This document shows positions 8,479-64,000 of a stretch of 64,000 bases of DNA, one piece after another; within the stretch, counting starts at the first letter, position 1, and every line of letters starts with the position of its first letter. The notes under the pieces were generated by a model. That model did no database searches, had not been told where the DNA came from, and saw nothing but the letters and a program-made list of their open reading frames with translations. This DNA is from a virus, in the IMG/VR virus record IMGVR_UViG_3300023174_007844, positions 1 to 64,000 of that record; one strand, given 5' to 3'. Made by a program: the position numbers and the translations under genes.

Positions 8479-9150
8479 ATGAATAAATTTCAAAAATTAG
8501 CTCAATTAAATAGAGACATTGAATTATTGGAAAAAGCTGGCAAAATTAAAGCAGCAAATATTCTACATGAAAAGTTTGTCAAGGAATCTCAATTGGCAAT
8601 TTCAACTCCTGTGCAAACAACAGTGCCTGTAGCTTACAGTGCGATGGCTTACAGACCAATGCCGGTTGCTCAGCCAGCAGTAAGAATGCCAAATGCACCA
8701 GTGGTAACTGCACCAGCTGCACCAGTGGCAGTTATGCCAACTCCTGGAGCTGCAGCTCTTCAGCAACAAGTAGTGCCTAATTCAGTCCCTGCGCCTTCAC
8801 CTGGTGCCACAACTCCTCCAATTAAATATGAAGCTCCACCAGTTGCTAAGCCCCAACCACAAGTTACACCCCCACCCACACCCACTCCAACAGAAGGTGG
8901 TAATTACAATATGATACCTGGGCCTGGAAAAACTACAATTTTTACAGATCCATCAACTGGAAATAATGTAGATCCCCCTGGCAGCGAAGATTTGTTTAAT
9001 ACTTTTTACGAACAATTGCAAGATGCTAACAAATATCCAGAACCTCAAAGAAGTCAATATTTAAAGTTCTTATATGGCAAAATTAATAAATTTAAATCCA
9101 AGTTAGGCAATAGATTGCATAGCAGTTTATTTGATGTGTATTTAGGATAA
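8479..9150 (+). CDS. Leader-bearing Pro/Ala-rich protein (putative virion cargo)
   Basis: N-terminal LEKAGKIKAANIL...KESQ leader followed by a low-complexity P/A/Q/T region. Confidence 0.75.
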   Translation: MNKFQKLAQLNRDIELLEKAGKIKAANILHEKFVKESQLAISTPVQTTVPVAYSAMAYRPMPVAQPAVRMPNAPVVTAPAAPVAVMPTPGAAALQQQVVPNSVPAPSPGATTPPIKYEAPPVAKPQPQVTPPPTPTPTEGGNYNMIPGPGKTTIFTDPSTGNNVDPPGSEDLFNTFYEQLQDANKYPEPQRSQYLKFLYGKINKFKSKLGNRLHSSLFDVYLG

Positions 9151-9845
9151 TGAGTATTTTTCAAAAGTTATCACAAATTAATAAAGACATTGAATTATTA
9201 GAAGCCTTTGGTGATATTAAGTCAGCAAATATTCTTCATAATAAATTCTTAAAAGTCTCTCAAGAGCTTATTTCTGAACAAGTAAAATCTCGTAAAGATT
9301 TGATGAAAGAAATATTTTTATTAGCCCAAAATCCAAATAATGATTTTGAAAAATTAGTTAGATGGTATGAAAACGATCCAGGTCGATATTCTGAAGAAGA
9401 CAGAGAATATATTGACAGAGCTATAGAAAAAGCTTCTGAACAAAGAAATATGGGCAAATTTACAACTGTCATAAATCCAGATAATCCAACTTTGCGTGAT
9501 GATTCGGATAGTAGAGATAATGGCGATAGCAACAGAAATGATGAAAGAATTGTAAAGGTTGATACAAATAAACCATCAAAATCAAAAAAGCCTATTCTTG
9601 ATAAAAGAGAGCAAGGTTATGTATACAGAAGAATTGTTGGTCAAATCAAAGATTTACTTAGAATTGTAAAAAGAAAACACGATAAAGGATATCCTGAAAT
9701 TGCTTATATTTTCAAAGAAAAAGCTGATAAGTTAGCAAATGATTATAGTGATTTTTTTGACGATCCAAAAAGTCAACATAATTTCATAACACAAGTAAAT
9801 AGAATCTATAATGACTTTTCTGAAACAAGTCCTTTGTCTCATTAA
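9150..9845 (+). CDS. Leader-bearing protein (putative virion cargo)
   Basis: First ~38 aa nearly identical to the 8479 ORF (FQKLxQxNxDIELLExxGxIKxANILHxKFxKxSQ); remainder unrelated; TAATG coupling. Confidence 0.75.
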   Translation: MSIFQKLSQINKDIELLEAFGDIKSANILHNKFLKVSQELISEQVKSRKDLMKEIFLLAQNPNNDFEKLVRWYENDPGRYSEEDREYIDRAIEKASEQRNMGKFTTVINPDNPTLRDDSDSRDNGDSNRNDERIVKVDTNKPSKSKKPILDKREQGYVYRRIVGQIKDLLRIVKRKHDKGYPEIAYIFKEKADKLANDYSDFFDDPKSQHNFITQVNRIYNDFSETSPLSH

Positions 9846-9873
9846 AAAAATCCCCTCGAAAGAGGGGATTTTT
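9845..9873. terminator. Bidirectional terminator between convergent genes
   Basis: AAAAAAATCCCCTC-gaaa-GAGGGGATTTTT. Confidence 0.9.
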
Positions 9874-9875
9874 AT

Positions 9876-11084
9876 TTAGTCTAGCATTTGTTTTGCAGCA
9901 ACATCAAAATCAATGCCACCATCATCATCTTCATCTAAATCTTCAGTAGATGGACCTTTGCTAATTGCTTCAATGAGATCAGTTAGTGGTTTGCCAATTA
10001 CTTTCAATCTTCCGCAAATAAACTCAAATGCTGTAGTAGACATATCATTTCTGGTACGCTTTTCTGGTGCTGGTTGATCCATTAGCATTTTGCAAAATTC
10101 ATATGCATCTTTTGACTCAACAACTTCTCCAGTATCAGTGTTCGTATAAATAAATTTCTTACGAACTTCCTTGATATATTCAAATCCTTTAGCTTTAGCC
10201 TTGTAAAGAAATTCGTCTACAGGATTAGTAGTTTCATCATCAGTGAACATAATCTTAAATTCACCAGTGACACCAGGCTGACCATATCGTGTCTTCATAA
10301 CAAGAACTTTGCTCTTGCCACCAATTACGACATCTTTGCCTTCAGCATCTTTCTTGGTGACCTGTCCAGCTGCACCATTGATCTTGTTGATCCAAAGACG
10401 CATATGAGTAAAGTAATTCATAGCATTACCGCCAGAAGCAGTTTTAACCATTGAACCAGGCATTGCACCACTACCCATATAAAGCTGATTGATAAGAACA
10501 ACAATAGTTCCAGATGCAGCAGTCTTTGCAGTCAAATCTTTTGTAAGACGCTTTACAAAACGTGCGTGGAGACCAATTGTTTGAACTTGCTCAAGAGATT
10601 TTTCAAGTTCATCATTAGGAATCATTGCTGAAATTGAGTCAACAACAATAACGCCATAATCTCCAGTCTCAACCATATACTTAAGAAGTTCACCATACTT
10701 TTCAGCAGAGCCAACATTCTCAATAAGTAAAAGTTGACCTGTGTTTACACCACAAGACAAAGCACGTTGAGGATAGTATGAATTCTCAATATTGAAGAAT
10801 GCACACTTCTTGCCAAGTTTTTGAGCTTCGGCCATCAACTTATAGCCAAGCCAAGTCTTACCAGATTGAGATTCACCACAAAACTCAATTAAAGTACCAG
10901 ATGGAATACCCATACCAGCACCAAGAATTGAGTCAACTTCAAAGACACCTGTAGGAACAAATTCAATATTCTCTACATCACCGGACTTGATACACTTTTC
11001 ATCAATTCCAAGTGCTTTAAGTTTTGCCTTTAATAAACGCTCTTGATCTTTATCAATTGCTTCGTTCAGTTCTTTTCTAGCCAT
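9876..11084 (-). CDS. recA: RecA/UvsX-type recombinase
   Basis: PTGVFEVDSILG, Walker A GESQSGKT, IVVDSISAM, LINQL, TASGGNAM. Confidence 0.93.
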   Translation of the reverse strand: MARKELNEAIDKDQERLLKAKLKALGIDEKCIKSGDVENIEFVPTGVFEVDSILGAGMGIPSGTLIEFCGESQSGKTWLGYKLMAEAQKLGKKCAFFNIENSYYPQRALSCGVNTGQLLLIENVGSAEKYGELLKYMVETGDYGVIVVDSISAMIPNDELEKSLEQVQTIGLHARFVKRLTKDLTAKTAASGTIVVLINQLYMGSGAMPGSMVKTASGGNAMNYFTHMRLWINKINGAAGQVTKKDAEGKDVVIGGKSKVLVMKTRYGQPGVTGEFKIMFTDDETTNPVDEFLYKAKAKGFEYIKEVRKKFIYTNTDTGEVVESKDAYEFCKMLMDQPAPEKRTRNDMSTTAFEFICGRLKVIGKPLTDLIEAISKGPSTEDLDEDDDGGIDFDVAAKQMLD

Positions 11085-11095
11085 AATTTATCCTC

Positions 11096-11123
11096 AAAAA
11101 GGGATGGATTGCTCCATCCCTTC
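11096..11123 (-). terminator. Intrinsic terminator after the SSB-like gene
   Basis: Minus strand AGAAGGGATGGA-gcaa-TCCATCCCTTTTT. Confidence 0.75.
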
Positions 11124-11129
11124 TATCAA

Positions 11130-12137: not shown

Positions 12138-12228
12138 TTTATATTTTCTCCAATTGGGCTCTTCCGTCCCACATTTTTTAGTTTACTGTATGTTTTGTGC
12201 TGAAGCAATAGAGAATTCAAAACTTTTG

Positions 12229-12975: not shown

Positions 12976-12983
12976 AATATTTC

Positions 12984-28185: not shown

Positions 28186-30720
28186 ATGTTCAATTTAAAA
28201 AAACACGTATCAGCTGCAGATTTATCCACAAAAGTATCTCCAGAAGAAATTCCAGGCAGAACGATCGAAGAAAAAGCTGCCTATATTTCTGAATACCTTG
28301 ATAGAGAAATTGGTGAAAAATTAGCAGCTGGAGAAATCGGTATTGATGCTGCTTACAAGTTATTGGCAGAAACAAAAGTAACAGGCGTACCACAACAATT
28401 TGAGTTTCTTGAAAAATACAGAAGTAATATCACTTCTTTAATTCAATCAGCTTGTACTATCAAAGAGCAATTAGAACAAACAGGATTAGATCCGAATCAA
28501 GTTTCTGAGATTATTATCAAGAAATTATTAGAGCGTGTCAATCAAGTATTTATTCCTGAATTGATTGAATTAAGTAGAACATCAAAAAGAAACTCTCCTG
28601 AAGCCACTGAAATTTTAGGAAGATTGCCAGACTATCAAGATCCTGATCAAATTGCTTCTATCAAAACATGGATATCTAAAGAAATTGAGAAAGAAGTAAA
28701 TGAGATTATTGACGAATACAAAGAAATTAGAAGTCGTGCATTACAGATTCCTAATTTTGATGATAACGATTTGTCAACTATGCTTACTAATCCTCCAGCT
28801 GAAGCATTAAAAGTATTATTCCCTGATAGAAGGAAAACATCAAAAGAACCATTGCCTTCTAAATTTACAGACCCAACAGTTGTCAGAGATGTTGAAGGTA
28901 TTAATGAAGAAATTCAAAAATTAGCTCGTAAAACTAATGTCAAAGGCGATACTGGCTGGACTAAAGTTCTTGCATTATCTGGGAAAATGGGTGAAGAAGA
29001 AATAGCAAGATGGAGCAAATTAATTGATCACCCTATCAAGTTTAATTTGTATGAAATTGTCAAGAATGCAGGTTTATTGTCCGAATTAAGATCTGAAAGT
29101 CCTAAAGTTTTAAGGCAAACTGGTTTTAAAAATCCTGAATTAAGACAACAATTTTATCAAATTTTCTTTCCTCAATTTGATCCTAGCACTGGATTACCTT
29201 TCTTATCAGAATCTGAAATGAGATATATTGATGAGAATTTTCCTGGTCAAAGACCTCAAGATATACCTTTCAATATAGATAGGAGAATGGATGCTATCAA
29301 ACGTTCTCAAATAAAGTTGAAAGATAATTATGCAAAAAATAGACTTTATGAATTTATTCAAGAAGGTTACGATGGTCCAGGGATAGTTAAATTAATTCAA
29401 TCTGATATGCTATCTGTAGATCCAGCAGGTTTGGCAATACAATTTTATTATAGAAGTATATGCAAATACAATATAAGCCAATTTAGGAGCGATTTGAGGG
29501 ATATTGGCTTGACTGAAGTCAGTGAAGCTTTAACATCTCAAAACCATATTCCTGATCCTAATTATAATTTTTTGGGGCTTACTACAAGGTCTACAGAAGA
29601 AGCAAGAATTATAGAAATTTTGAGAAAAGAATTTGGTATTGATGCTATTCCATATCAAGTTTTAGTACCAATTCCCACTGACTGTCCAACGAATGTAAAT
29701 AATTTTGATATTGACTTTATGATTTATGTAGATGTTTTAGAATACATCGATCCAGTCACTTTTCAACCAGTAATCAAGTCAAAAGTTATGTTTGTTGGAG
29801 AATATTTTGGCTACGACAGTGATGACCCCAAAACAATTGTAGATAGAGGAAGACCTTGGGTAGATCCTGATGGCAATGTTTTCACTCCTCCACCACAAAT
29901 TAGTAAAAAAACTGGTGAAGTAATGAAAGAGTATGAGCCTCTTCTTCCTGGTGTTAAAACAAGAGAAGGAAATATATATAAGCTTAAGACATTATGGAAA
30001 AAGAGAACTTATTCTACTCTTGCTCATATTGTTGGCACTGATGCTTTGAGCTTTGAAGAACAAGATTTAAAAGTCCCATTCAATACAATAGCTCAAAAAT
30101 TAGATGAGAAAAATATTATTTATTCTTATTCAGGTTGCAGCAATACAAACAATTTCTGCAAAGCTAAGAAGATGATTGACAATAGTGTTGACTTTGAATT
30201 ACAAGCAAATATTGACAATCCAGATTATCGCAGAATGATGGTAAATGATGACAAGAGAAAATGCATTCGTGCAATTGACTCTGCAATATTACATTACAAA
30301 TTACAAAATGCAGTAAAGCAAGCTAAAAAAGAATTCATTGGTAGAGCTGGATTTGATAGAAAGACTATCAAGGAACATCATGATTATGTTGAAAGCATCA
30401 AGCACAACATAGACAATGCATCTAGAATTATAATAAGTCCTAATTCTACAGCAGAACAAAGGATGTCTGCTCAAAAAATGATAGAAGCAAATCAATCGGA
30501 TATGACAACTTTAGAAAATTCACCATTAAGACCGTTCAAGTCAAGAGTTGATGAAATATTATCTGAAAGACAACATGTTGAAAGATTACAACAATTTGAG
30601 CAACTTAAGAATGCTATAGAAAATGGAACAATATCAACTGACTTAAACGAATTACGAAAATCATTAATGGAAATTGATGAGGGTATTTTTGGATTCGTTA
30701 CAGATCCAGAAAAATTATAA
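28186..30720 (+). CDS. Large protein with MFNLKK-type leader and a central PD-(D/E)xK-like domain
   Basis: STEEARIIEIL...GI...IDF...GEYFG...YKLKTLWK pattern; rest helical. Confidence 0.6.
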   Translation: MFNLKKHVSAADLSTKVSPEEIPGRTIEEKAAYISEYLDREIGEKLAAGEIGIDAAYKLLAETKVTGVPQQFEFLEKYRSNITSLIQSACTIKEQLEQTGLDPNQVSEIIIKKLLERVNQVFIPELIELSRTSKRNSPEATEILGRLPDYQDPDQIASIKTWISKEIEKEVNEIIDEYKEIRSRALQIPNFDDNDLSTMLTNPPAEALKVLFPDRRKTSKEPLPSKFTDPTVVRDVEGINEEIQKLARKTNVKGDTGWTKVLALSGKMGEEEIARWSKLIDHPIKFNLYEIVKNAGLLSELRSESPKVLRQTGFKNPELRQQFYQIFFPQFDPSTGLPFLSESEMRYIDENFPGQRPQDIPFNIDRRMDAIKRSQIKLKDNYAKNRLYEFIQEGYDGPGIVKLIQSDMLSVDPAGLAIQFYYRSICKYNISQFRSDLRDIGLTEVSEALTSQNHIPDPNYNFLGLTTRSTEEARIIEILRKEFGIDAIPYQVLVPIPTDCPTNVNNFDIDFMIYVDVLEYIDPVTFQPVIKSKVMFVGEYFGYDSDDPKTIVDRGRPWVDPDGNVFTPPPQISKKTGEVMKEYEPLLPGVKTREGNIYKLKTLWKKRTYSTLAHIVGTDALSFEEQDLKVPFNTIAQKLDEKNIIYSYSGCSNTNNFCKAKKMIDNSVDFELQANIDNPDYRRMMVNDDKRKCIRAIDSAILHYKLQNAVKQAKKEFIGRAGFDRKTIKEHHDYVESIKHNIDNASRIIISPNSTAEQRMSAQKMIEANQSDMTTLENSPLRPFKSRVDEILSERQHVERLQQFEQLKNAIENGTISTDLNELRKSLMEIDEGIFGFVTDPEKL

Positions 30721-36503: not shown

Positions 36504-36695
36504 ATGCCAAAACCATTACATGATTTAGTAGATAAATTATTAGATAATCCTGATTTTTATCCAGAAAAATCTAAAGATGATAGAGAATCTACAGCTTGGG
36601 CAATTGCATATTCAGATTATAATAAAAATAAGAAAAGAAAAAAGAAATCATTTAATTTAAAAGAATATCGTACAGCACAAAAACCAGATCAATAG
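36504..36695 (+). CDS. Small ChaB-like basic protein
   Basis: ATG 36504; MPKPL...RESTAWAIAYSDY resembles ChaB; C-terminal SFNLKEYRTAQ. Confidence 0.55.
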   Translation: MPKPLHDLVDKLLDNPDFYPEKSKDDRESTAWAIAYSDYNKNKKRKKKSFNLKEYRTAQKPDQ

Positions 36696-38965: not shown

Positions 38966-39436
38966 TTATTCTGGGACAATTAGCTTCTCATATGTTTCAA
39001 AAAATTCCTGAGAAGCAATCCTGTACACTTCAAGATAATTTGGAGAAGGTGAAACAATATAATCTCCAGGCTTTAATGACATTAATCTGCCCCATTTTGC
39101 TACAAATTCAAGTTCAGAACCATAATATCTACAAGCAAGAATCTTACCTTTTGGGATGTAAATTGCACCTTGTTCATAATAATAGAAAAATTTATATCTA
39201 CTAAACAACATATCAGAAGGAACGATATATTCTTCTTGACATTCTGTTTGTAAATTTTTCACTACAAAATCGCCTTCTTTTGCATAATTTGTAGTTTCCA
39301 ATCCATCAGCGGTCCAAGTTTCTATATATTGATTTAATTGGGCAGGATAAGCATAAATTAAACAAGTTTTAAAATACTCTTGTCCATTGTCTCTTATTTC
39401 AGGAAAAAAATAAGAGTATGCTTCATCTTGTGTCAT
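38966..39436 (-). CDS. PGDYG-like hypothetical protein
   Basis: Two internal repeats: AKEGDFVV...F..RY and LKPGDYIV...FFETY. Confidence 0.55.
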   Translation of the reverse strand: MTQDEAYSYFFPEIRDNGQEYFKTCLIYAYPAQLNQYIETWTADGLETTNYAKEGDFVVKNLQTECQEEYIVPSDMLFSRYKFFYYYEQGAIYIPKGKILACRYYGSELEFVAKWGRLMSLKPGDYIVSPSPNYLEVYRIASQEFFETYEKLIVPE

Positions 39437-40281
39437 CAGGATTCAAGCATTTGTTCGATATTGAAAAGATTAGTTCCGATATCTCTTAGATTGGTATATA
39501 TTTCTGTTAGCTTTTTTACTTGTTCTTCAGGAAGATTATTAGGATTTTCAGCAGTGTTTACCATACGATAATTTTCATCATAATTGCTTTTGACATCCCC
39601 AATTACAGAGGATATAAAACTTTGCATATCATCTAATTTTCTAGAAATTTCATCTACATTTAATTCTGATAATTTAGAAATTACTTCAGAATATTGATCA
39701 GATGACGTGCCAGATTCATCTCCTAATTCAACTTCTGACCCTCTTCTAATATCTAATTCATCGCGGGTTATATCGTTTTTCTTAAGCCAATCTAATTGTT
39801 GTCTGGTAGGATTTGTGTAAATAGTTGCATTAGCTCTACCATTATTCAAGTTTATTCTCATAGCACCAGTGAGTTCAGAAAGTACGTGTCTATCAGATCT
39901 ATCTTTCAATGCTTCTGGATTTACACCTAATCTTGATAGTAAGTATTTATCAAACATTACGTGAGATCTTAAATTAGGAGTGACAGAACCATCAGGCATT
40001 ACGTAAAATGCTTCATATGGTGTGCTAAAATGTGTGTGGGTTTCTCTTGATCCACTTACCCAAGGACTAGATTGATCAAATTCAGACATAATTTTAGAAA
40101 TTTCTGAATTGATAGCTGCAACCATTTCTTGTTCAGATCCATACTTTTCAATTAATTTTCTTTTGATTGTATCTGCATCATCAGTTGATGGATCTATATA
40201 AGATTTAGAACGAAGCTCATTTTGAATAATTTGTTCTGCTTCTTCTTTGGAAATCGCTTGTTTAATAAATGAATACCACAT
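39436..40281 (-). CDS. MWY-leader protein (putative virion cargo)
   Basis: ATG 40281 gives MWYSFIKQA; late-type motif ends 8 nt upstream. Confidence 0.7.
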   Translation of the reverse strand: MWYSFIKQAISKEEAEQIIQNELRSKSYIDPSTDDADTIKRKLIEKYGSEQEMVAAINSEISKIMSEFDQSSPWVSGSRETHTHFSTPYEAFYVMPDGSVTPNLRSHVMFDKYLLSRLGVNPEALKDRSDRHVLSELTGAMRINLNNGRANATIYTNPTRQQLDWLKKNDITRDELDIRRGSEVELGDESGTSSDQYSEVISKLSELNVDEISRKLDDMQSFISSVIGDVKSNYDENYRMVNTAENPNNLPEEQVKKLTEIYTNLRDIGTNLFNIEQMLES

Positions 40282-43645: not shown

Positions 43646-43998
43646 TTGATTTCTCTTATTTTATCAAAAATTTTATTCCAATTATTGTCATCAACTAAAT
43701 CAATAGTAAATTCTTCTTCTTCACCTGTGTCGTGATTTATGCTATGCCATAAACCTTGCAAATTCCATATTTTGATATCAAGAGATGAATCAGTGTTATT
43801 TATATTCCATTCTAAAATGACATCATCTCCAACAGCAAATATTTTGGGCAAAGATAAATCTCTGGGATAATTTTTGGTCAAGAAATCAGAAAGCAAAACC
43901 AAATCTTCAGTGTAAAGTTCAGTGTATTCATTTGCTATCCAACCATTTGAAAATATTTCTTCAAACCTATCCCAAAAGTAAGTGAATTTTTCTTTCAT
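43642..43998 (-). CDS. Hypothetical protein
   Basis: ATGA-coupled operon gene. Confidence 0.65.
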   Translation of the reverse strand: MKEKFTYFWDRFEEIFSNGWIANEYTELYTEDLVLLSDFLTKNYPRDLSLPKIFAVGDDVILEWNINNTDSSLDIKIWNLQGLWHSINHDTGEEEEFTIDLVDDNNWNKIFDKIREIK

Positions 43999-44210
43999 TC
44001 TTGATTTACTTTCTTGAGAGTGTATTTTGCTTCCATAGGTAATATAAGAAATTTTATCTCCATCCAGTCAGTTTCACCAGATTGATGCTTTACTTTATTC
44101 TGTAGCTTATTATCCTGAAATCTCCAATAAGTGGTATTTTTCTCATCTTTCACACACAGAATATGCCCAGAATTTAAAATTTCAATTACCTGTGTTGGAA
44201 TAGGAAGCAT
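43995..44210 (-). CDS. Hypothetical protein
   Basis: Coupled operon gene. Confidence 0.55.
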   Translation of the reverse strand: MLPIPTQVIEILNSGHILCVKDEKNTTYWRFQDNKLQNKVKHQSGETDWMEIKFLILPMEAKYTLKKVNQE

Positions 44211-44479
44211 TAATCAACCTCAAAACTTTTCCTAAATGTTTCTCTAACATTTTGATCCCACAACAATTCAGATGCAAAACCAAGAGTACCAGAGTCAAAA
44301 TGAATCCAAACAGTTTTACCATCATCAGAAAGACTTACTTCTATAATATCATTTTTATTGTGTTGAAATTCTTCACAACAAATATGGGCAATTTCTTGTA
44401 AATATTTTTTGAATCTAACAAAACTATAAATACGCCCTCTTACATATTGTTCACTTAATATCTTTGGATCAGCTTCCAT
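44210..44479 (-). CDS. Hypothetical protein
   Basis: Coupled operon gene. Confidence 0.6.
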   Translation of the reverse strand: MEADPKILSEQYVRGRIYSFVRFKKYLQEIAHICCEEFQHNKNDIIEVSLSDDGKTVWIHFDSGTLGFASELLWDQNVRETFRKSFEVD

Positions 44480-44669
44480 TTAACACTCGCAATGATAAGA
44501 AAAACAAAGCACTCAACATCCCACTAATAATTAGTAAAGAAGAAGTGAATTGTAAAAAAGATCGATCTTTTACAACCACAGTCTTATATGCCCCTATGAG
44601 AAAGTAAGACCAACTCATAAGAGCAAATAAAAAGACAATGGATAGAATTATAATCTTAATATTTTCCAT
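44469..44669 (-). CDS. Small two-TM membrane protein
   Basis: Two hydrophobic stretches. Confidence 0.6.
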   Translation of the reverse strand: MENIKIIILSIVFLFALMSWSYFLIGAYKTVVVKDRSFLQFTSSLLIISGMLSALFFLSLRVLNGS

Positions 44670-45201
44670 CTTTTATGTCCTGTTGATGTTTATCCACTTC
44701 TGCCACAACATCAACACTTTCCCAATCATCAGCAATTAAATCTAAATAAATAAGCTTGCCGTATCTAGCATATTTACCAACACCCCAATCAGGATGCCAA
44801 CTTTTACGTCTGATTGTTTTTCCGGCATTTAAATCATCCAATACATCTTTGAATAATTTATTTGGAACCACAACCCAATCTTCAGCAAAAAGATCTTCAG
44901 TGGTGATTGTAGATTCTGCGTGATCATATTTTTTAGGAAATAATGTAAGACTAGGGTTGCCTTCTCTTGACATCATTTTGCCATGCCCTAACATTTTGAT
45001 AGCCCAATTGATATCTCTCTTAAGCTCGATATTATTCACCTTAAGAAAACTATCAAAATTACTTCCAATATGCTTGTTCTCTAAAGCATAAGGCAAATAA
45101 TCTTCACCTGGATCGATATAATTCATAGCTGCCTTATTCAATTTTGCTTTTTTAATTTCGACATCATAAAAATATTTTTGATTTTTAGGTAATTTATCCA
45201 T
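44656..45201 (-). CDS. Tandem DUF2829/Tad2-like protein with an antitoxin-like N-terminal segment
   Basis: NKHIGSNFDSFL; AIKMLGHGKMMSR...EDLFAEDW; VLDDLNAGKTIRRKSW...DLIADDW. Confidence 0.6.
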   Translation of the reverse strand: MDKLPKNQKYFYDVEIKKAKLNKAAMNYIDPGEDYLPYALENKHIGSNFDSFLKVNNIELKRDINWAIKMLGHGKMMSREGNPSLTLFPKKYDHAESTITTEDLFAEDWVVVPNKLFKDVLDDLNAGKTIRRKSWHPDWGVGKYARYGKLIYLDLIADDWESVDVVAEVDKHQQDIKDGKY

Positions 45202-45220
45202 ATCTTATAATACCATAAAA

Positions 45221-45254
45221 AAATGAACTTGTAAGAAATCCTTACAAGTTCATT
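45221..45254 (-). terminator. Intrinsic terminator after the FN3 gene
   Basis: AATGAACTTGTAAG-aaatc-CTTACAAGTTCATT with a T-tract on the minus strand. Confidence 0.8.
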
Positions 45255-45272
45255 AACACAAAAACAATCTAT

Positions 45273-47972
45273 CTATAATAATTTAACATCAGGGAAGCTT
45301 GTCAATACCTCAAATCCCATGTTGTCCCAGTGTCTTTCATCAGCAAAAGGTCTGAAATTAATCCAATATGAGTTTTCAGGACCATAAGTTCTAACTTCAC
45401 CAATTTCATTCCATGTATGGTAGATCAAGTGAGCAAAATTAACATTTATATCTTCGAATGGAAAATCAACTGGCAAAGTAGAATCAGCTACTAAATAACC
45501 ATCTTCAATTGCCACCACTCTATTTTTGGATATATATAAGTCAAATTGTGATCGTCTATCCAATCCTTGCCAAGTTCTATTTAATGGCTCGTTTAATCTT
45601 TGAACACTAGGTCTGAAGAAAATATCACCTTCAAATAAACCTGTAGTTGGATTTTTTGAAGCTCTGTAAATTATTGCACCAGAACGAGTAGTACAATAAG
45701 CATCCATCAATTTTGTAAGTTTATTTTTTGAATCTTGACTTACCCACCAATAATCTGGGTTGAAATCAATATTATCTAATACTTTCAATGTGTCAGAAGT
45801 AAGTTCATACTCATTGACACCACCAAAGTCAGCAAATCTAATCCAAGTTGATCTAGGTACAGCTCCAGTATTCATAGTAAAAGCTGGAAATTTACCATTG
45901 TCATTAAAATTAGCAGTCCATTTTATTTCAGTAAAAGAAGGTTGATCATTAATAGAATTCACTTTGAATGTACCAACTTTATATTCAGTGCGATAATCAA
46001 CTCTTCTATAAGGCGCTGGTAAATTCCAAGGGGCACTATCTCTTCCAGCAAATTTTACTGGAATATTGTAAGATTTTCTAGAGCCATCTGGATTATAACC
46101 AGTGTCTACATTCATATTGTAACTGTTAGCATTTATTGCCCATCTGAATAATTTACCAGATAATGTATTTTGTGCAATTTTGTCAGCTGCTTTACCAGAA
46201 TATACTACTTCTCCAGCAGGCAACAAAAGAATATCACACCATCTTCTGCCACTAAAATGGGGATCAACTTCAAATGTCAGGTGTAATACTTTGCCACCAG
46301 ATATATTTGCAGTTTTCTTCGGGCTCATCAGCATCACGCCATTACTAACGTGTGATGGAGTTGATGATTGACCCAAGGTTCCACCATCATATATAGTGTC
46401 CATAAAGTGAGAACCCATTAAGAATACGGTTGAAGCAGATGTATCAAGATCATCTAAGAAGAATGACCATTTATCGTTTTCATACCATCTTAAAATGACA
46501 TCACTTTTGTTCCAATATTGCCAATTTCTTCCAAATCTTTGTTCTACTACATCTAACTTTTGTGGCATTTGAACAATCGGTTGGAAGTTTCTAAAGTTGT
46601 CAAAGAATACTTGTTCACCAGCTAAAGTTTTTTGAATTGTGGTTACTTTATATGGTGCTGATTTTGTAAGTACTATTGGATTATTAGATGGATCTCCGTG
46701 ACCATTTACTCCAGCATGAACTTCACCACTTGGACCACTTGCACCAGGACCTATCACGCCATCAATTTGTTGATATGGACCAAACTTATCTAATGCTTCA
46801 ACAATAAGATTATATGATTGGTTGCTTGTCAAACCATTCATTTCAACCATATTATAGCCTGAAGAATATTTAACAGTATTTGGATTATTTTCTACATAAA
46901 CTTTATAGTCTGCAGCACCAGGAACCAAATCAAATTTTACAACAACACTGTCATCGTTTGGAGTGTATCCTGTAATATTAACAGGAGTTGAAATTGGATC
47001 TGGTGGACCAAATCTTGTTATTATATCTGCTGCTGGGCCAAATGTTTCTTGCACTGTAAAATGATTTTTATTCACAGAAGCAACAACATATCTGTAAGTT
47101 TTGCCAGATATTACATCTTTGTCTATGTAATATTGAGACCATAAATTGGCTGCAATTAAAGTTCCATCTCTGTAAATATTATATGCATTTGGAGAGTCCT
47201 GGCCATTAATTTGTTGATCTTGCCACTTTATGAAATTTCTTGGCTTTCCATTATTCCATTCAGGGACAGCAACATATTTGCCAGGAGTTGATGGAGGTCT
47301 AGTAGTCCATCCGAAATTATAGTTAGGAGCAAATTCACCTCTTGCTAAACTTAAAGCAGAAGGCAAAGATTCTAATCCATTTTTATCAACTGCGGTAACT
47401 GTATATGTCCAGCCTTCACCAAACACCAATTGACTTACTGTAAATGAATTAGTATTCGAAGAACCAATTTTTTGACTGTATCTGTAAATATTGTAGGATA
47501 CAGCTTCAGGACTAGGATCCCAAACTAACTGATCATAAGCACCATTATTCCACAAACCAAATGTTCGTAAATTGACAGGAGCTTCGGGATTCTTCAGAAC
47601 TAATAATGGAATAATTGCAGTGGAAACATTTGACATCTGCAAAAAACCAGATGGTACAACACCACAAACATAGTAATCCCATTTGTCACGGTATTTTACA
47701 TTTCTATCAATGAAAATATTCTCGTTATTTACAAGTTTCGCATAAGGCTTATAATAATCAGGTTTGGTACCTTGACCAACCTTATAAATAAAATAACGAG
47801 TGCATTTAGGTATTAAGTCCCATCTTAATTTGACGTGATAATTAGATGGAGTACCCACGCAGTAGCACAATTCTACTTGAGAAGAAAAATTCTTTACTTG
47901 TGGTGGTTTTTGAGCCCACGCACAGGAAACAAATGTGTATAAAAACACAAATAAAACAATAGCTTTCTTCAT
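45273..47972 (-). CDS. Large exported protein with multiple fibronectin type III-like domains
   Basis: Signal peptide MKKAIVLFVFLYTFVSCAWA-Q; repeated W...YNIYR...YxVxAVD/N FN3 patterns; SD GGAGG. Confidence 0.75.
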   Translation of the reverse strand: MKKAIVLFVFLYTFVSCAWAQKPPQVKNFSSQVELCYCVGTPSNYHVKLRWDLIPKCTRYFIYKVGQGTKPDYYKPYAKLVNNENIFIDRNVKYRDKWDYYVCGVVPSGFLQMSNVSTAIIPLLVLKNPEAPVNLRTFGLWNNGAYDQLVWDPSPEAVSYNIYRYSQKIGSSNTNSFTVSQLVFGEGWTYTVTAVDKNGLESLPSALSLARGEFAPNYNFGWTTRPPSTPGKYVAVPEWNNGKPRNFIKWQDQQINGQDSPNAYNIYRDGTLIAANLWSQYYIDKDVISGKTYRYVVASVNKNHFTVQETFGPAADIITRFGPPDPISTPVNITGYTPNDDSVVVKFDLVPGAADYKVYVENNPNTVKYSSGYNMVEMNGLTSNQSYNLIVEALDKFGPYQQIDGVIGPGASGPSGEVHAGVNGHGDPSNNPIVLTKSAPYKVTTIQKTLAGEQVFFDNFRNFQPIVQMPQKLDVVEQRFGRNWQYWNKSDVILRWYENDKWSFFLDDLDTSASTVFLMGSHFMDTIYDGGTLGQSSTPSHVSNGVMLMSPKKTANISGGKVLHLTFEVDPHFSGRRWCDILLLPAGEVVYSGKAADKIAQNTLSGKLFRWAINANSYNMNVDTGYNPDGSRKSYNIPVKFAGRDSAPWNLPAPYRRVDYRTEYKVGTFKVNSINDQPSFTEIKWTANFNDNGKFPAFTMNTGAVPRSTWIRFADFGGVNEYELTSDTLKVLDNIDFNPDYWWVSQDSKNKLTKLMDAYCTTRSGAIIYRASKNPTTGLFEGDIFFRPSVQRLNEPLNRTWQGLDRRSQFDLYISKNRVVAIEDGYLVADSTLPVDFPFEDINVNFAHLIYHTWNEIGEVRTYGPENSYWINFRPFADERHWDNMGFEVLTSFPDVKLL

Positions 47973-48017
47973 TTTCAACCTCCCCAGGTTTATTTTTTGG
48001 TTAGAGAGCTATTGTTT

Positions 48018-49964: not shown

Positions 49965-50993
49965 ATGTTAAGAATTTCTACATCTGCTTGTTTATCATAT
50001 GCTAAACTTTGTGACTCATATGGATATTATGAACAAGCAGATTTTTATGAAAATTTAGTAAATGTAAGATTGTCTCAATTAAATTACGATTACGAAAAAC
50101 AACCAGCTTGGATTAAGGAACAATCAGCTCCTGAAAAAGCTTTCTTTCAAACATTACAATATCCATATAAATTATTAGAAAAATCAAACGCTTCTGCAAA
50201 ACAAAAAGATCTCATAACAGATGCTGCGTTTGGTTCTATGGATGCGTTTGATGTAGCATTCACCTCTCCACAAGCAATTCAAGCTGCAAGAAAAGCAAAA
50301 GATTTAGCAACCTTAATAAAGAATAATCCAGCTGCAGCAGAATCTGCAAAAAAAGCAGCTACACAAATTTCCACCAAAATACCAATATTAAGTAAACTTA
50401 TTTCAATAACACCTTTTATAGGCGTTTTAATTAATCTTTATTTGTCAAGACAAGAGATAGCAAAATATTTTGACCTTATCAATAATGGAAAATTTGATGA
50501 AATTTGGAATGATCCTGAAGAAAGATCCAAATTTATTGAAATCGTAATAATGACAATTGCAGGTGCTTTAACACTACCTGTTGTTGCAGCTATACCTGTA
50601 TATGGACAAATTATGTTTGCCACAGGAACAGCTTTATATGCTGTTTCAAGCACACTTACTTTAGGTCGCACAGCTATTGACGCTTATTTAGTAGGTACAG
50701 GTGAAAAAAATTCTGTAACTGAAGCAATTAGTAAAGATGATTATTCTTTAGAACAAAATGAAATAGTTGGAATATTACAAGGCACAAGTCAAGATATTAA
50801 AGACGCTGTCAAAATTGCAGCAAAACACCTTAAAAATAACCCAGCAGCCAAATATATTGAAATTTTTGCATTACCTGAAATAAAAAATTATCCTTGGATA
50901 CAATCTCACAACACTCCCGAAGATAATCTCAAATATAATAAGTTTATGCAAATATTATCAATTTTAAGAAAATTATCTAAACGCTCTAAATAA
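49965..50993 (+). CDS. Leader-bearing protein with hydrophobic helices (putative virion/ejection protein)
   Basis: LCDSYGYYEQAD...RLSQ leader; internal hydrophobic segments. Confidence 0.7.
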   Translation: MLRISTSACLSYAKLCDSYGYYEQADFYENLVNVRLSQLNYDYEKQPAWIKEQSAPEKAFFQTLQYPYKLLEKSNASAKQKDLITDAAFGSMDAFDVAFTSPQAIQAARKAKDLATLIKNNPAAAESAKKAATQISTKIPILSKLISITPFIGVLINLYLSRQEIAKYFDLINNGKFDEIWNDPEERSKFIEIVIMTIAGALTLPVVAAIPVYGQIMFATGTALYAVSSTLTLGRTAIDAYLVGTGEKNSVTEAISKDDYSLEQNEIVGILQGTSQDIKDAVKIAAKHLKNNPAAKYIEIFALPEIKNYPWIQSHNTPEDNLKYNKFMQILSILRKLSKRSK

Positions 50994-51018
50994 AAAACCC
51001 CCAAGAGGGGGTTTTTTA
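50991..51018. terminator. Bidirectional terminator between convergent leader genes
   Basis: TAAAAAACCCCC-aaga-GGGGGTTTTTTA. Confidence 0.9.
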
Positions 51019-51019: not shown

Positions 51020-52210
51020 TTAGAAAAGTTTTACTTCAAAATCTTCTTCTTCAGATGAATCTCTTGGGATTGTAAAACCATATGTTTTCATAACATATTG
51101 AATTAAATTGTTTGCAATATGTTCGCCCAAATCAATCAGAGCCATGTTATAAAGTTCTTTTTTTGTTATGCCTGGTTTTATAGATCCATTGTTTTTCTTT
51201 CTTGTTAAATATTTTTCCATAGTTTCAATAGGGGTATCAAACAATTTTGCTTTTTTTCTATCAGCATCAATTTCATTTGTTAAGCGCCCTACATTTGAAC
51301 CATCTGTGCCTGTTGCCTTTGGAGCATCAGGTTTTTGTTTTCCTTTCATTAAAGCTGCCGTACCAGCAGCTGAAGCACCAGAAAAAAGCAATGCTGTAAC
51401 TGCAGGACTCATAGTTCTCTTCCAAGGTCCCATGCTATACAAATAACTTCTCATAGGAATTGTGCTGTGTTGAAGTACTTGTTCAATCATATTGTCTGTA
51501 GTGAAAGAATTGTCATACAACATTCCTCTCAATTGCCTTTCGGAAGCAATACTAGCTTTGATTTGGTTTGCATTTTCCATATTTCTTGGAATTCCATACG
51601 TACTACAAACGTGATCTATTGCTGTTTCTATAAGTGCAACATGAGCATCTCTCATCTGAACAAGTTCATTTTCTAAAGGACTTACTAATTGTTCTCTTTC
51701 TCGTGGATGAGCTTCTAACCAATCATCAATTTCATCATCAGCTAAATGATGCATTCTCTTAATTTCTTCAATTCTAGTGTCGTAAAGAGTTTTCCATCTT
51801 GCATATAACTGTGGAAATTCTTTTTGCTTAGATTGGACTTGTCTGTAAGCTGGTTGTAGAGCATTGATGATGCGATCAATTAATCTTGAATTGCTTCTAC
51901 CAACCATTGGATTATGACCACTTACATTTTTTTCATCATCTAATAATTCCAAAACTTCATCATAATCAGGTACAGTTCTCATGCGATCTATAACATTTGG
52001 ACCTCTACTTAAATCACGTACTTGTCTTCTGGCCCTCGCTGATTCATCACCAACTCCACGTATTCTGTCAACAAATCTTCTCCAACCAGTTTGAAATGGA
52101 TTTTGAGCTTCTTTGATTAAGTTGTCAATTTTGTCAGCTGATTTATAATCTCCATCACGATCAGCTTCCATAGCCAATTTTATGTACTTGTTTAATTGAT
52201 TTTCTTGCAT
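51020..52210 (-). CDS. Leader-bearing protein (putative virion cargo)
   Basis: EADRDGDYKSADKIDNLIKEAQ leader; Ala/Gly hydrophobic segment. Confidence 0.75.
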   Translation of the reverse strand: MQENQLNKYIKLAMEADRDGDYKSADKIDNLIKEAQNPFQTGWRRFVDRIRGVGDESARARRQVRDLSRGPNVIDRMRTVPDYDEVLELLDDEKNVSGHNPMVGRSNSRLIDRIINALQPAYRQVQSKQKEFPQLYARWKTLYDTRIEEIKRMHHLADDEIDDWLEAHPREREQLVSPLENELVQMRDAHVALIETAIDHVCSTYGIPRNMENANQIKASIASERQLRGMLYDNSFTTDNMIEQVLQHSTIPMRSYLYSMGPWKRTMSPAVTALLFSGASAAGTAALMKGKQKPDAPKATGTDGSNVGRLTNEIDADRKKAKLFDTPIETMEKYLTRKKNNGSIKPGITKKELYNMALIDLGEHIANNLIQYVMKTYGFTIPRDSSEEEDFEVKLF

Positions 52211-54731: not shown

Positions 54732-54748
54732 GGTATAATCCTTGTGAT

Positions 54749-54821
54749 GGCCTGTTAGTCGAGTGGTTAAGATGCCTCCCTTTCACGGAGGAGACCAGGG
54801 GTTCGATACCCCTACAGGCTA
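54749..54821 (+). tRNA. trnE: tRNA-Glu(TTC)
   Basis: GGCCTGT/ACAGGCT acceptor; CCTCC-CTTTCAC-GGAGG; TTCGA loop; no CCA. Confidence 0.93.
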
Positions 54822-54845
54822 TTTGTGGTATAATGTATTTGTTGT

Positions 54846-54916
54846 TCTCTGGTGGTGTAACGGTAGCACAGAGGTTTTTGGTGCCTTTAGTTGGAGTTCG
54901 AATCTCTACCGGAGAA
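54846..54916 (+). tRNA. trnQ: tRNA-Gln(TTG)
   Basis: TCTCTGG/CCGGAGA acceptor; GAGGT-TTTTGGT-GCCTT; TTCGAAT loop. Confidence 0.88.
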
Positions 54917-54921
54917 CCTTT

Positions 54922-54992
54922 GCTCCATTAGTATAAAGATAGTACGGATCTCTTGTAAAGATTGGGTAGGCGTTTGATTCGTCTATGGAGCT
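54922..54992 (+). tRNA. trnT: tRNA-Thr(TGT), non-canonical D/T loops
   Basis: GCTCCAT/ATGGAGC acceptor; GATCT-CTTGTAA-AGATT; T-arm AGGCG-TTTGATT-CGTCT. Confidence 0.8.
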
Positions 54993-55022
54993 CCTTTCCC
55001 TTTTTTGTGATATAATAAAGTT

Positions 55023-57974: not shown

Positions 57975-57997
57975 AAAGGTATTATACATTCCAAATT

Positions 57998-58652: not shown

Positions 58653-58725
58653 GCAACCGTAGCTCAGTGGATAGAGCAAATGCCTTCTAAGCATTTGGCC
58701 ACAGGTTCGAGTCCTGTCGGTTGTA
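58653..58725 (+). tRNA. trnR: tRNA-Arg(TCT)
   Basis: GCAACCG/CGGTTGT; AATGC-CTTCTAA-GCATT; ACAGG-TTCGAGT-CCTGT; TGTGGTATAAT promoter. Confidence 0.95.
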
Positions 58726-58749
58726 TCAGAAAAATCTCATCCTAAACAG

Positions 58750-58777
58750 ATGGGATTTTTCTTTTTAAACCAGAATA
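58750..58777 (+). promoter_or_regulatory. Putative late promoter (ATGG-N18-AGAATA), ATG 7 nt downstream, overlapping the tRNA terminator
   Basis: Fixed spacing. Confidence 0.45.
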
Positions 58778-58784
58778 AATTATT

Positions 58785-59162
58785 ATGTGGTATCGAATTT
58801 CAGCAAAGAAAAAAGTTAGCTTAGTTATTGTATTTAATGGCGATAAAGTTTTGTTAGGTGAAAAATTGTCTGGCTATGAAATTCCTGGCGGTCATGTTGA
58901 TTATTTAGAAGATGAAAAAGATTGTGCCAGAAGAGAATTGGAAGAAGAAACTAACTTAAAGATATCTAAAATTAAACTTTTGCGCACTATGGATATGCCT
59001 GACAAAATTGTTTATGTTTATTACACTAATAATTATTCTGGTGATCTCTTAGCTGGAGATGATTTAGTAGGAGCAAGTTGGCATAAAATAAATGATTTGC
59101 CCAAAATAAAATTTAATGGTGCTGAATTAATTTCTGAAGCATACGAAAAAAGCTCCTCATAA
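58785..59162 (+). CDS. Nudix hydrolase with MWY leader
   Basis: Nudix box GGHVDYLEDEKDCARRELEEETNL; N-terminal MWYRISA. Confidence 0.9.
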   Translation: MWYRISAKKKVSLVIVFNGDKVLLGEKLSGYEIPGGHVDYLEDEKDCARRELEEETNLKISKIKLLRTMDMPDKIVYVYYTNNYSGDLLAGDDLVGASWHKINDLPKIKFNGAELISEAYEKSSS

Positions 59163-59174: not shown

Positions 59175-59176
59175 AT

Positions 59177-60193: not shown

Positions 60194-60300
60194 TTAAATC
60201 CTCAAGTAAATTATACGCAGAAAAAAAATTTATTTTCTAGAATATAACACATGGAGGATATCTTAATGAAGGGAAAATTATCACCAACGGAGTTGACAAT

Positions 60301-61309: not shown

Positions 61310-61359
61310 GAAGGTTTTATACAGAGCAAATGTGAAAGCCAGTATGGGGGTGGGAAAAA

Positions 61360-61950: not shown

Positions 61951-61991
61951 TAATTTTGTATTGATATAAGAATAAAGGATACTATTTCCTA

Positions 61992-63077
61992 ATGTGGTAT
62001 AAAATAGCCCAGCAATTGCAACTTCCTGGTTTAGATGTAGAGCAATCTTCACCAACAACAAGAGAAAAATCTAAGCCAAGAGAAGAATCACCAGAACTTT
62101 TAGAAACTCAAAAAAATCCTCAAAGTTTATTCTTTAGTGATTGGGCTAAAGGTCATTACGTGCCAGAAGAACCTGTCTATCACGGAACAACTCACGAATT
62201 TGATAGATTTGATATTGACAAAGGTTCAATGAGTAATTATTTTGGTCCAGCATTTTATTTTACTAGTGATGAAGAAGATGCTTCAAAAAATTACACTGGT
62301 ACTGGGCCTGATCAAGAAAGAAACATTGAAAATCTTCAATATAATTTGCTTGATCAATATGATGAAGACGAATATTATCTATGGAATTTATATAGTGATG
62401 ATCCAAGATATAGTAGAGAATTCAATGAAGACGGTAAACCATATAACCCAAGTTATCTAGCAGAAAAAATTGCCAGAGATACAATTTTAGGACCCAATAA
62501 ACCTAGAGTAATTCCTGCTCACGTTAGAATGAAAAACCCAATTCATCTAACTAGTTCACAGGATGCAGAACATCCAGAAAAAGTTTTCATTGATGATATA
62601 GAAGGTAGTATGGACTTTTTAGGGAAAAGAATCAATCCTTCTGACAACCATAATTTGAGCACAGTTATATCAAAACTTCACAATATTATAGTGGACTATT
62701 GGGATTATGATATTGCTAATGAAATTTGTGAAGAATTAGTGCAAGATAATTCTGTTGGATTTGATGAAGAAATTTCAGCCTCTTCATTGATCATGGACCT
62801 AATTAAAAAATTAGAATTTTATGATAGTGATCAAGATACTCAGTTTAAAGGTGATATTGTCAAAAGATTTATTAATTCACTAGGACATGACAGTATTGTC
62901 ATGGATCCTAATCAATTTTTCAGAATGTACTCTCAAAAGAAACCAATCAAACATTACATCACCTGGAATCCAGAAAACATTAAACACGCCAGAGAAAATA
63001 TAGAGTTTGATCCAAAAAATCCTGTTATCACTGCTAAGAGTGGTAAAATTAATTTATGGAAGAATTCTTTGCTGTAG
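61992..63077 (+). CDS. ADP-ribosyltransferase-like (ART-PolyVal-type) protein with MWY leader
   Basis: VYHGT...FDRFD...FGPAFYFTSD...VIPAHVRMKNP...GHDSIV...YITWNPENIK; N-terminal MWYKIAQ. Confidence 0.7.
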   Translation: MWYKIAQQLQLPGLDVEQSSPTTREKSKPREESPELLETQKNPQSLFFSDWAKGHYVPEEPVYHGTTHEFDRFDIDKGSMSNYFGPAFYFTSDEEDASKNYTGTGPDQERNIENLQYNLLDQYDEDEYYLWNLYSDDPRYSREFNEDGKPYNPSYLAEKIARDTILGPNKPRVIPAHVRMKNPIHLTSSQDAEHPEKVFIDDIEGSMDFLGKRINPSDNHNLSTVISKLHNIIVDYWDYDIANEICEELVQDNSVGFDEEISASSLIMDLIKKLEFYDSDQDTQFKGDIVKRFINSLGHDSIVMDPNQFFRMYSQKKPIKHYITWNPENIKHARENIEFDPKNPVITAKSGKINLWKNSLL

Positions 63078-63418
63078 TTTTCATCGAATGTATGATGGAA
63101 AATAATAGATGTTTCTCTGACAAAGATTTTTATAAATTATTAAAAACCCAAAGACTAGATAAATCAAAAGTAAATTTCAATCAACTTATGCAAGCATTTT
63201 TAATTGAATTTGAATTTGATAATTATGAGATTTTAGACAATATATGGCAGCCTAAAGGATCATTTGTTTCTCATAAAGCAATTTGGAATATAATTGATGA
63301 ATTAGAGTTACATTTAGAAGTGGAAAATTCATTGGGTGGATTTTACGAAACAAGTTGTGATGTAGTACAGAAAATTAATAATTATCTTTGGTTATGCGAA
63401 AAAGAAGCCTCCCAATAA
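63056..63418 (+). CDS. Hypothetical acidic protein
   Basis: Overlaps the upstream gene and ends at a terminator. Confidence 0.55.
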   Translation: MEEFFAVVFIECMMENNRCFSDKDFYKLLKTQRLDKSKVNFNQLMQAFLIEFEFDNYEILDNIWQPKGSFVSHKAIWNIIDELELHLEVENSLGGFYETSCDVVQKINNYLWLCEKEASQ

Positions 63419-63445
63419 AGGGGGGCTTCTTTTTTTATAAGAAAC
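63418..63445 (+). promoter_or_regulatory. Putative late promoter (AAGG-N18-AGAAAC), ATG 8 nt downstream, overlapping a terminator (63399-63436)
   Basis: Fixed spacing. Confidence 0.55.
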
Positions 63446-63453
63446 TTATTGAT

Positions 63454-63918
63454 ATGTATGCTGAAAAACTCTTAAGGATAGCAAGTAAATTAGATAGCTT
63501 AGAACAGTATAAGTTAGCAGATAAATTTCTAAAACTTGCTCAAGATATGTCTGTTCCTTATTATGTATATCCCACTCAGCAAAAATATGATTATAGAAAC
63601 AGAATACCAATGAAACGAGATTTCACTGGCAAATCTACAACAGAAATAGATAATAAGTTTGGTCAGGATGCAAAAATATATTTACAACAATTAATAAAAG
63701 ATCCATTATTATTTGACCATCCACAATCAAAAATAATGTTAGACACTATATTAAATGATCCTGACTATAAAATGAATCAATCCTCTTTAGTCAATATGGT
63801 TAATATATATCGAAATCATTATGAGCAACTAAATGACAATAGAAATGATATTCATGCAATTGCTGATTTGGAACCAGAATTACACAAGCACTTAGACAAT
63901 ATGTTGAGTAAAACTTAG
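63454..63918 (+). CDS. Leader-bearing protein (putative virion cargo)
   Basis: ATG 63454: MYAEKLLRIASKLDSLEQYKLADKFLKLAQ. Confidence 0.75.
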   Translation: MYAEKLLRIASKLDSLEQYKLADKFLKLAQDMSVPYYVYPTQQKYDYRNRIPMKRDFTGKSTTEIDNKFGQDAKIYLQQLIKDPLLFDHPQSKIMLDTILNDPDYKMNQSSLVNMVNIYRNHYEQLNDNRNDIHAIADLEPELHKHLDNMLSKT

Positions 63919-63927
63919 GAAAACTTT

Positions 63928-64000
63928 ATGTGGTACAACAGAACAATTTTAGCAGCAATACAAGATGCAATCAACGCCTTGCAATCAAAAGGTGTAAGTG
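63928..64000 (+). CDS. MWY-leader protein (partial)
   Basis: MWYNRTILAAIQDAINALQSKGVS..., runs off the window. Confidence 0.6.
   Translation, partial: MWYNRTILAAIQDAINALQSKGVS

Follow-up and report, generated by a model that had tools for sequence, protein, structure and literature searches.

Tag families in the window and in related genomes

The window analysed here, a stretch of 64,000 nucleotides, is the first 64 kb of the 80,398-bp virus record IMGVR_UViG_3300023174_007844 (G+C ~32%) and codes for a ribonucleotide reductase, a RecJ-like exonuclease, a UvsX-like recombinase, a DnaE-type polymerase and a DnaB-like helicase. It also holds genes whose products carry one of a few characteristic terminal peptides, here called tags, either a long tag of about 34 residues (the hairpin, after its predicted fold) or a short tag that begins M-W-Y. 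A preliminary description of the sequence had proposed that such peptides are modular leaders that recruit unrelated proteins into the phage head. We find that the tags are genuine, that selection acts on them as peptides, and that they are modular and mutually replaceable on one and the same protein body; ~1 protein in 7 of this phage is tagged.

Close relatives in IMG/VR are fragments of 83-114 kb rated 22-32% complete, and one 358-kb relative (G004) is rated 89% complete, so that a size of about 350-380 kb is expected for the whole genome. Among GenBank phages, the best counterpart of the relatives' capsid protein (284 amino acids (aa); phrog_2522 match, 5e-68) is gp27 of Bacillus phage G, with 47.5% identity over the full length. 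Judged from such sequence comparisons, this uncultured virus belongs with the phage-G-like huge phages. In G004, out of roughly 394 genes, ~27 are hairpin-tagged and 15 are of the MWY type.

A profile of 34 positions was built from the first residues of 10 candidate genes in the 80-kb record and used in a six-frame scan. The 10 tags that built it score 37-46 bits, compared with 4.9 bits for the best chance match in all six frames. Long tags were found on six genes of the window, in each case right after the start Met, and on 11 genes of the 80-kb record; the six long copies of the preliminary description are all present. They comprise residues 1-38, ending KESQ, of a 223-aa Pro-rich protein (8479-9150; tag 8479-8592, 41.0 bits); residues 1-38, ending KVSQ, of a 231-aa protein (9150-9845; tag 9150-9263, 41.3 bits), modelled as a hairpin by AlphaFold2 (AF2); residues 1-30, ending KIAQ, of a 298-aa protein (35603-36499; tag 35603-35692, 39.9 bits); residues 1-38, ending RLSQ, of a 342-aa protein (49965-50993; tag 49965-50078, 41.3 bits); residues 1-36, ending KEAQ, of a 396-aa protein on the minus strand (51020-52210; tag 52103-52210, 42.9 bits); and residues 1-30, ending KLAQ, of a 154-aa protein (63454-63918; tag 63454-63543, 42.2 bits), whose body carries MWYRxAQ in relatives. 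All but the fifth are on the plus strand. Outside the profile set, further copies were detected at the N-terminus of an open reading frame (ORF) at ~71832 (14.7 bits) and at the C-terminus of a 1003-aa ORF at 65722-68733 on the minus strand (16.9 bits).

The preliminary description had expected that a leader profile would find many more matches in the genome and its relatives, and this was borne out: among 1.84 billion cluster representatives searched, 750 protein clusters (50% identity level) match the long-tag profile at E<=1e-3. Among the best 150 of the 750, ~100 are single-copy, nearly all at residues 1-40, with near-identical tags (MNKRQIIASLNKIANELDNSGLYKEANSITNVMKRLAQ) and entirely different bodies. 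In GenBank phages, tblastn with one leader or with a three-copy protein gave no match, no family of Pfam or PHROGs covers the long tag, and a literature search returned no paper with the tag motifs in a relevant sense. Some proteins have two or three hairpin copies, located N-terminally, internally or at the extreme C-terminus, and the copies within one protein stand hundreds of residues apart. Some of the internal copies arise where two neighbouring tagged genes form one ORF in relatives; the second tag of the fused ORFs of the 8479/9150 type lies at about residue 216 or 266. The corresponding genes of the record (8479-9845) are a single fused ORF at G004 88921-90456 and in P0003, P0004 and P0008. 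Two large neighbouring proteins, paralogues of about 1000 and 934 aa that match no family, both carry a C-terminal hairpin copy (record 65722-68733, minus strand; 10687-16507 in the relative G001).

The short class of the preliminary description is likewise present. ATGTGGTAY occurs five times in the window, compared with 0.86 expected (a count reached in none of 100 shuffles), and all but one of these sites start long ORFs. These encode a 281-aa protein that starts MWYSFIKQA (39436-40281, minus strand; tag 40255-40281, with ATGTGGTAT at the ORF start); a NUDIX hydrolase that starts MWYRISA (58785-59162, plus strand; tag 58785-58805; Pfam NUDIX, 3.2e-15), whose G004 orthologue starts MWYRYSM; an ART-PolyVal (ADP-ribosyltransferase-like) protein that starts MWYKIAQ (61992-63077, plus strand; tag 61992-62012; Pfam, 1.4e-08), with MWYKLAQ in the G001 and G004 orthologues; and a 595-aa PcfJ-like protein that starts MWYNRTILA (63928-65715, plus strand, running past the window end; tag 63928-63954; Pfam PcfJ, 1.4e-13), with MWYNRTI or MWYSKTI in orthologues. 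A fifth MWY gene at 77313 on the minus strand, beyond the window, brings the total for the 80-kb record from four to five. The 281-aa MWY gene is missing at the syntenic site of G001, where its neighbours abut, and is a presence/absence cassette.

The third class of the preliminary description, with FN or YN starts, is present and kept in relatives, and as a class it is weakly defined and has few members. An 844-aa protein (28186-30720, plus strand), the body of which gave no family match, starts MFNLKKHVSA (28186-28215; MFNLNKHVLA or MFNFKNFKTA in relatives). A 316-aa protein (34617-35567, plus strand) starts MRKNISTYNHKKFAQ, including Y-N-H-K-K-F-A-Q (34617-34661), and has MRKSISIYNHKKFAQ in G001 and ...ITYNHKLAQ in G004. 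Finally, FNLKEYRTAQ stands near the C-terminus of a 63-aa protein (36504-36695, plus strand; peptide 36651-36680), the G001 orthologue of which reads ...KKKSFNMKEY.

Junction, selection and exchange of the tags

In 191 non-identical N-terminal tags, position -4 of the junction is K or R in 87%, position -2 is A or S in 88%, and position -1 is Q in 67%, E in 10% and D in 9%. From position 0 onward there is no conservation, in agreement with the earlier observation that similarity ends right after AQ or SQ. Across the G004 proteins, [KR]-x-[AS]-Q occurs 82 times, compared with 54 ± 6.7 times in shuffled proteins, and its rate in the first 12 residues is 4.6 times that beyond residue 50.

Between the record and G001, the 8479 tag shows 11 synonymous and five non-synonymous codon differences, the 49965 tag seven and four, and the 72552 tag five and two, respectively. 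The residues just after several tags are unalignable or replaced in G001; for example, the 35603 body after AQ is a Pro/Lys-rich stretch there. Since the tags are kept through synonymous changes while the sequence that follows diverges, they are under selection at the protein level.

The body encoded at 63454 bears directly on modularity, which the preliminary description had proposed for the leaders. In the G001 orthologue, which has nearly identical flanking DNA and its start codon at the same position, MWYRKAQ stands in place of the 30-residue hairpin, with the same junction to the body, ...AQ|DMSVP, as in the hairpin form. Full-length homologues of the 63454 body in public data number 63; the hairpin stands on 44 of them and MWYRxAQ on 19, and every one has the junction ...AQ|[DE]MS. 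A maximum-likelihood tree of the bodies requires 11 changes of tag type, and its well-supported branches alone force at least 10. Because at least 10 switches have occurred on one body family at the same junction, the hairpin and MWYRxAQ are interchangeable. On this sequence evidence, the tags act as exchangeable modules of equivalent function, swapped by repeated indels or by recombination at the junction. The mature body, not the tag, appears to be what matters, and the exchange makes most sense if the tag serves as an address, to be read and perhaps taken off, and has no share in the work of the protein. The repeated exchange of two such dissimilar tags on a single body amounts to a natural experiment in which the tag proves separable.

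Protein bodies behind the tags and predicted fold of the long tag

With their tags removed, no two of 18 tagged proteins are similar at BLASTP E<=0.01, which upholds the earlier statement that the bodies differ. The recognisable bodies, NUDIX (58785), ART-PolyVal (61992) and PcfJ-like (63928), all stand behind MWY, as does a weak, below-threshold GNAT-like match in a relative. ART-PolyVal on 61992-63077 scores 36.1 bits (cut-off 31.2), and this is the one body with a domain from the polyvalent-protein repertoire. The long tag departs from the earlier reading in that the bodies behind it are not enzymes: in 114 long-tag proteins FHA was found in two and AP2 in one, and the bodies are otherwise almost all small, with hardly any Pfam domain. 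The set of tagged genes varies strongly between relatives, as would be expected of cargo directed at the host.

The AF2 model of the 9150 protein has a helix at residues 3-20, a turn at 21-22 and a second helix at 23-44, with a predicted local distance difference test score (pLDDT) of 77-87 over residues 1-30. The leader profile weakly matches TPR_12-like (tetratricopeptide) repeats of large cellular proteins, and one of 10 leaders aligns with Pfam TPR_2 positions 3-33 (E 2e-4; 21.5 bits, cut-off 27); none of the 10 passes the Pfam TPR thresholds. From profile and model, the long tag looks like a single TPR-like helical hairpin of ~34 residues. The likeness lies in the length of the helix-turn-helix, 34 residues, and in the way small and large residues are spaced along it; unlike a TPR domain, the tag is a single unit at the protein end, mostly one per protein and not a tandem array of three or more, and all its matches stay under the Pfam cut-offs. 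Similarity would stop after A-Q because A-Q ends the 34-residue unit in the TPR register. The preliminary description had regarded the long leader as a putative targeting and protease signal; it is more probably a folded module in its own right and not only a cleavage signal, since copies also occur internally and at C-termini, the latter without AQ. The N-terminal dimerisation hairpin of bL12 was considered as a counterpart and rejected, as it rests only on viral bL12-like proteins listed by the Atlas among structural look-alikes of the hairpin, with hhalign of the leader alignment against E. coli bL12 giving E 0.6; the bL12 C-terminal domain (PF00542) has no match in five related records.

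Tagged genes in the head module and a protease candidate

None of the head genes lies in the 80-kb record, which stops short of the protease candidate described below; they were found in relatives. The order in G004 is large terminase, a 329-aa MSENIRIAQ protein, a 146-aa hairpin protein, six ORFs, a 175-aa MWY protein and the portal, followed by a 1379-aa protein, an acidic 562-aa scaffold-like protein, a 217-aa protein and the capsid protein. We compared 51 related loci in which a gene ends just before the portal (portal identities 49% to 100%). That gene starts MWY in 48 loci and MSWY in the other three, and the 10 kb upstream of the portal contain a hairpin-tagged gene in 43 of the 51 loci and a gene starting M-x-x-N-I-R-T-A-Q in 22. 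On this comparison of sequences, tagged genes are conserved members of the portal-side head module.

The 1379-aa protein is the candidate for a head-maturation protease. Its residues ~89-246 share 38% identity with gp19 of phage G (BLASTP, 2e-34), which is listed as head maturation protease (PMC12484599). This stretch also matches phrog_18299, 'head maturation protease' (1e-21), and weakly the NCBIfam prohead-protease fusion model NF045541 (1e-4). An hhalign comparison with HK97 gp4 is weak (E 0.025); in it N-H-K aligns with N-H-K and V-S-M-G with M-S-V-G, positions that we take to be the catalytic His65 and Ser114 of gp4. The protease-like domain has no sequence match in PDB, and a search of the relatives for S77 gave no match and is uninformative, as its controls gave none either. 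The protein begins MY[KR]VAK, close to the short tag. The G004 protein (43855-47994, minus strand) continues beyond its protease-like domain with an extension of ~1100 residues that has CxxC pairs near the end; gp19 has only 300 aa. This extension is a candidate reader of the tags. A complex prediction for the capsid protein and a leader scored 0.00, which is evidence neither way.

Two possible tag sites in head proteins were dismissed. A hairpin seen by eye at the C-terminus of the acidic 562-aa scaffold-like protein (...LNDGLKADSMIRQTKLLLKSAQ) receives no support from the leader profile. The conserved 'TALAQ' of the capsid protein is also found in phage G, which has no tags, and is hence structural.

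A possible head address and alternative explanations

We tentatively favour, at somewhat less than an even chance, the view that the tags are portable address labels that send proteins to the core of the assembling head, to be enclosed there and delivered with the DNA, perhaps after trimming. A label would take the form either of the ~34-residue TPR-like hairpin or of M-W-Y-[KR]-x-[AS]-Q and related aromatic-[KR]-x-[AS]-Q starts, all forms sharing a [KR]-h-[AS]-[Q/E/D] ending, and recombination would fuse these labels to many unrelated accessory proteins that turn over rapidly. The most likely destination within the head is the part of the core where scaffold and protease lie, behind the portal. 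From there the tagged proteins would come to be shut inside the capsid and would leave it with the DNA, and the putative head-maturation protease encoded beside the portal may cut the tag off near A-Q. Head-core binding, enclosure, ejection and cleavage are steps that we infer. The head address fits the conserved position of tagged genes, the interchangeability of the tags, their T4-like boundary, the ART body and the fast turnover.

The closest parallel is phage T4, for which PMC9026906, citing Mullaney and Black (1996), describes a capsid targeting sequence (CTS) on IPI-III and Alt that is removed by the prohead protease gp21. The ADP-ribosyltransferase Alt is loaded by its N-terminal propeptide and then ejected, the gp21 site is L/I-x-E and the CTS ends F-I-A-E (PMC9026906). 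Like the CTS, the tags are short N-terminal peptides common to otherwise unrelated, fast-evolving proteins; they have a hydrophobic-small-Q/E ending (F-I-A-E in T4; K-I-A-Q or K-L-A-E here), an ADP-ribosyltransferase is among the bodies (the MWYKIAQ ART-PolyVal protein parallels Alt), and genes for small tagged proteins adjoin those of the portal and of the protease, here a candidate. Unlike it, they have no sequence similarity to MKTYQEFIAE, with only the last three residues alike by inspection (IAE compared with IAQ or LAE); P1 would be mainly Gln instead of Glu; the main tag would be a folded 34-residue hairpin; there are ~40 tagged genes per genome compared with ~4 in T4; and the protease candidate is HK97-gp4-like, not gp21-like, in a system known here from sequence alone.

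In phiKZ, 201phi2-1 and SPN3US, head and ejection proteins have propeptides that are cleaved after S/A/G-x-E or A-x-E (PMC5694885, PMC10052503, PMC7411985). These too are huge phages with many DNA-enclosed proteins and a short motif with an acidic last residue. However, their propeptides are not one shared portable sequence, and they belong to another lineage, the capsid protein here being near gp27 of phage G. More generally, proteins are brought to the inner face of HK97-fold shells by the targeting tail at the C-terminus of the HK97 protease gp4, by the helix-turn-helix with which P22 scaffolding protein binds coat protein and by the cargo-loading peptides of encapsulins, such terminal peptides or small helical hairpins standing at either end of the cargo. 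No sequence similarity between any of these and the tag was found.

Several findings weigh against a head address. A folded 34-residue module exceeds what a protease needs, and in the 9150 model the second helix continues beyond KVSQ to residue 44. Residue -1 is other than Q, E or D in 14% of tags, and the hairpin also occurs internally and at C-termini, with the C-terminal copies lacking the AQ ending; C-terminal tags are nevertheless compatible with a head address, since T4 Alt is processed at both ends (PMC9026906). The preliminary description had expected KxA/Q sites in capsid and scaffold proteins; [KR]x[AS][QED] is not enriched in the protease and scaffold proteins of the relatives, and the ALAQ of the capsid protein recurs in tagless phage G. 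The Pfam S78 model has no match in the relatives, and the AF2 model of the protease-like domain is poor (mean pLDDT 47.6; 8-row alignment), so that the protease assignment depends on sequence matches. Tagged genes are scattered over the whole G004 genome and are not confined to the vicinity of the head genes. Finally, phage G, the only cultured relative, has tag matches at chance level only; because it is without tags, its virion proteomics is uninformative about them.

An unlikely alternative to the head address is that the tag serves for docking or oligomerisation at a hub other than the capsid, in which a lone TPR-like hairpin packs on another hairpin or on a phage or host partner and the tag is retained. 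The match of the leader profile to TPR_12-like repeats, and of one leader to TPR_2 in register (E 2e-4, under the cut-off), would suit such a module, as would the two or three copies in some proteins at N-terminal, internal and C-terminal positions, the missing AQ ending of the C-terminal copies, and long-tag bodies that are mostly small and of low complexity with no recognisable domain. The repeated replacement of the 30-residue hairpin by the seven residues of MWYRxAQ is, however, hard to square with a structural oligomerisation domain, and both tag types occur in conserved genes of the head module.

It is quite improbable that the tags address nothing and are conserved N-termini of one fast-diverging paralogous family, or by-products of recombination at shared promoter and start regions. 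Tagged genes do stand partly in tandem arrays in G004 (145.5-151.6 kb and 225.7-231 kb), some neighbouring ones are fused into one ORF in relatives, and many lack a Shine-Dalgarno sequence and have a AGAATAAA-like box 8-12 nt ahead of the ATG, all of which could be expected of such an origin. The selection on the peptides at the protein level speaks against it, however, as do MWY genes that lie within operons with no promoter in front, tags on the unrelated NUDIX, ART and PcfJ-like domains (and on the weak, below-threshold GNAT match), and the hundreds of distinct bodies found by the leader profile. Slightly less probable still is that the tags are signals for a phage ClpXP, as N-terminal degrons or adaptor-binding tags that set when, in the course of infection, accessory proteins are removed. 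Genes for ClpP (E 4e-68; G004 206392-206925, between two tagged genes) and for a ClpX-like AAA_2 ATPase (about 286.6 kb) occur in relatives, and W-Y-K-I fits the hydrophobic-hydrophobic-basic-hydrophobic pattern of the ClpX N-terminal recognition motif, but ClpXP and tags are not coupled, since phage G has ClpXP and no tags, ClpP was found in three of the five records searched, with G006 having 21 tag matches and no ClpP match, and a degron leaves the conserved tagged genes beside the portal unexplained.

A more specific version of the head address, as a code readable from sequence, is doubtful in its entirety: a hairpin or M-W-Y-[KR]-x-A-Q start would direct a protein to the prohead through the protease and scaffold core, an HK97-gp4-like protease would cut after A-Q/E/D, and the body would be injected. 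If this code were true, the injected proteome (~40 proteins per genome and hundreds of metagenomic families) would be readable from sequence, and a folded TPR-like hairpin would be a new kind of capsid-loading signal. If the tags load capsids, the injected proteins of huge phages could be predicted from sequence in thousands of uncultured genomes, which is otherwise possible only through virion proteomics of cultured phages, and the tagged proteins should include many that take over the host or counter its defences. Like the CTS of T4, the short portable tag or the small hairpin would then also be of use as a tool, for loading large capsids with foreign proteins.

Gene context and other observations

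The preliminary description had portrayed the tagged genes as cassettes with their own promoter motif and terminators, and this was borne out in part. Terminator-like sites flank the pair 49965/52210 and precede 63454, whereas the putative promoter motif AAAGG is barely commoner upstream of tagged genes, being found within 80 nt of 11 of 43 tagged genes (26%) and 54 of 351 untagged genes (15%), a difference too weak for a link between promoter and tag. The AGAATAAA-like box noted above (58770-58784, 61975-61991, record 70850-70864 and several G004 genes) is placed in a manner that points to 5' leaders which are very short or missing. A GC-rich hairpin with T-runs at 50998-51010, in the gap where the tagged genes 49965 (plus strand) and 52210 (minus strand) converge, looks like a two-way terminator.

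Genes for tRNA-Glu, tRNA-Gln and tRNA-Thr cluster at 54748-54994, and tRNA-Arg(TCT) lies at 58653-58725, just upstream of the MWY-NUDIX gene. A prepilin-like DUF1559-type protein (MKKAFTLIELLVVIAIIAILAAILFPVFAQARDKAR...) is encoded beyond the window at record 69317-70216 on the minus strand, with a second copy at G001 9180-10145, and may be a clue to the host. One capsid homologue carries the name of a 'Bacteroidetes bacterium' bin.

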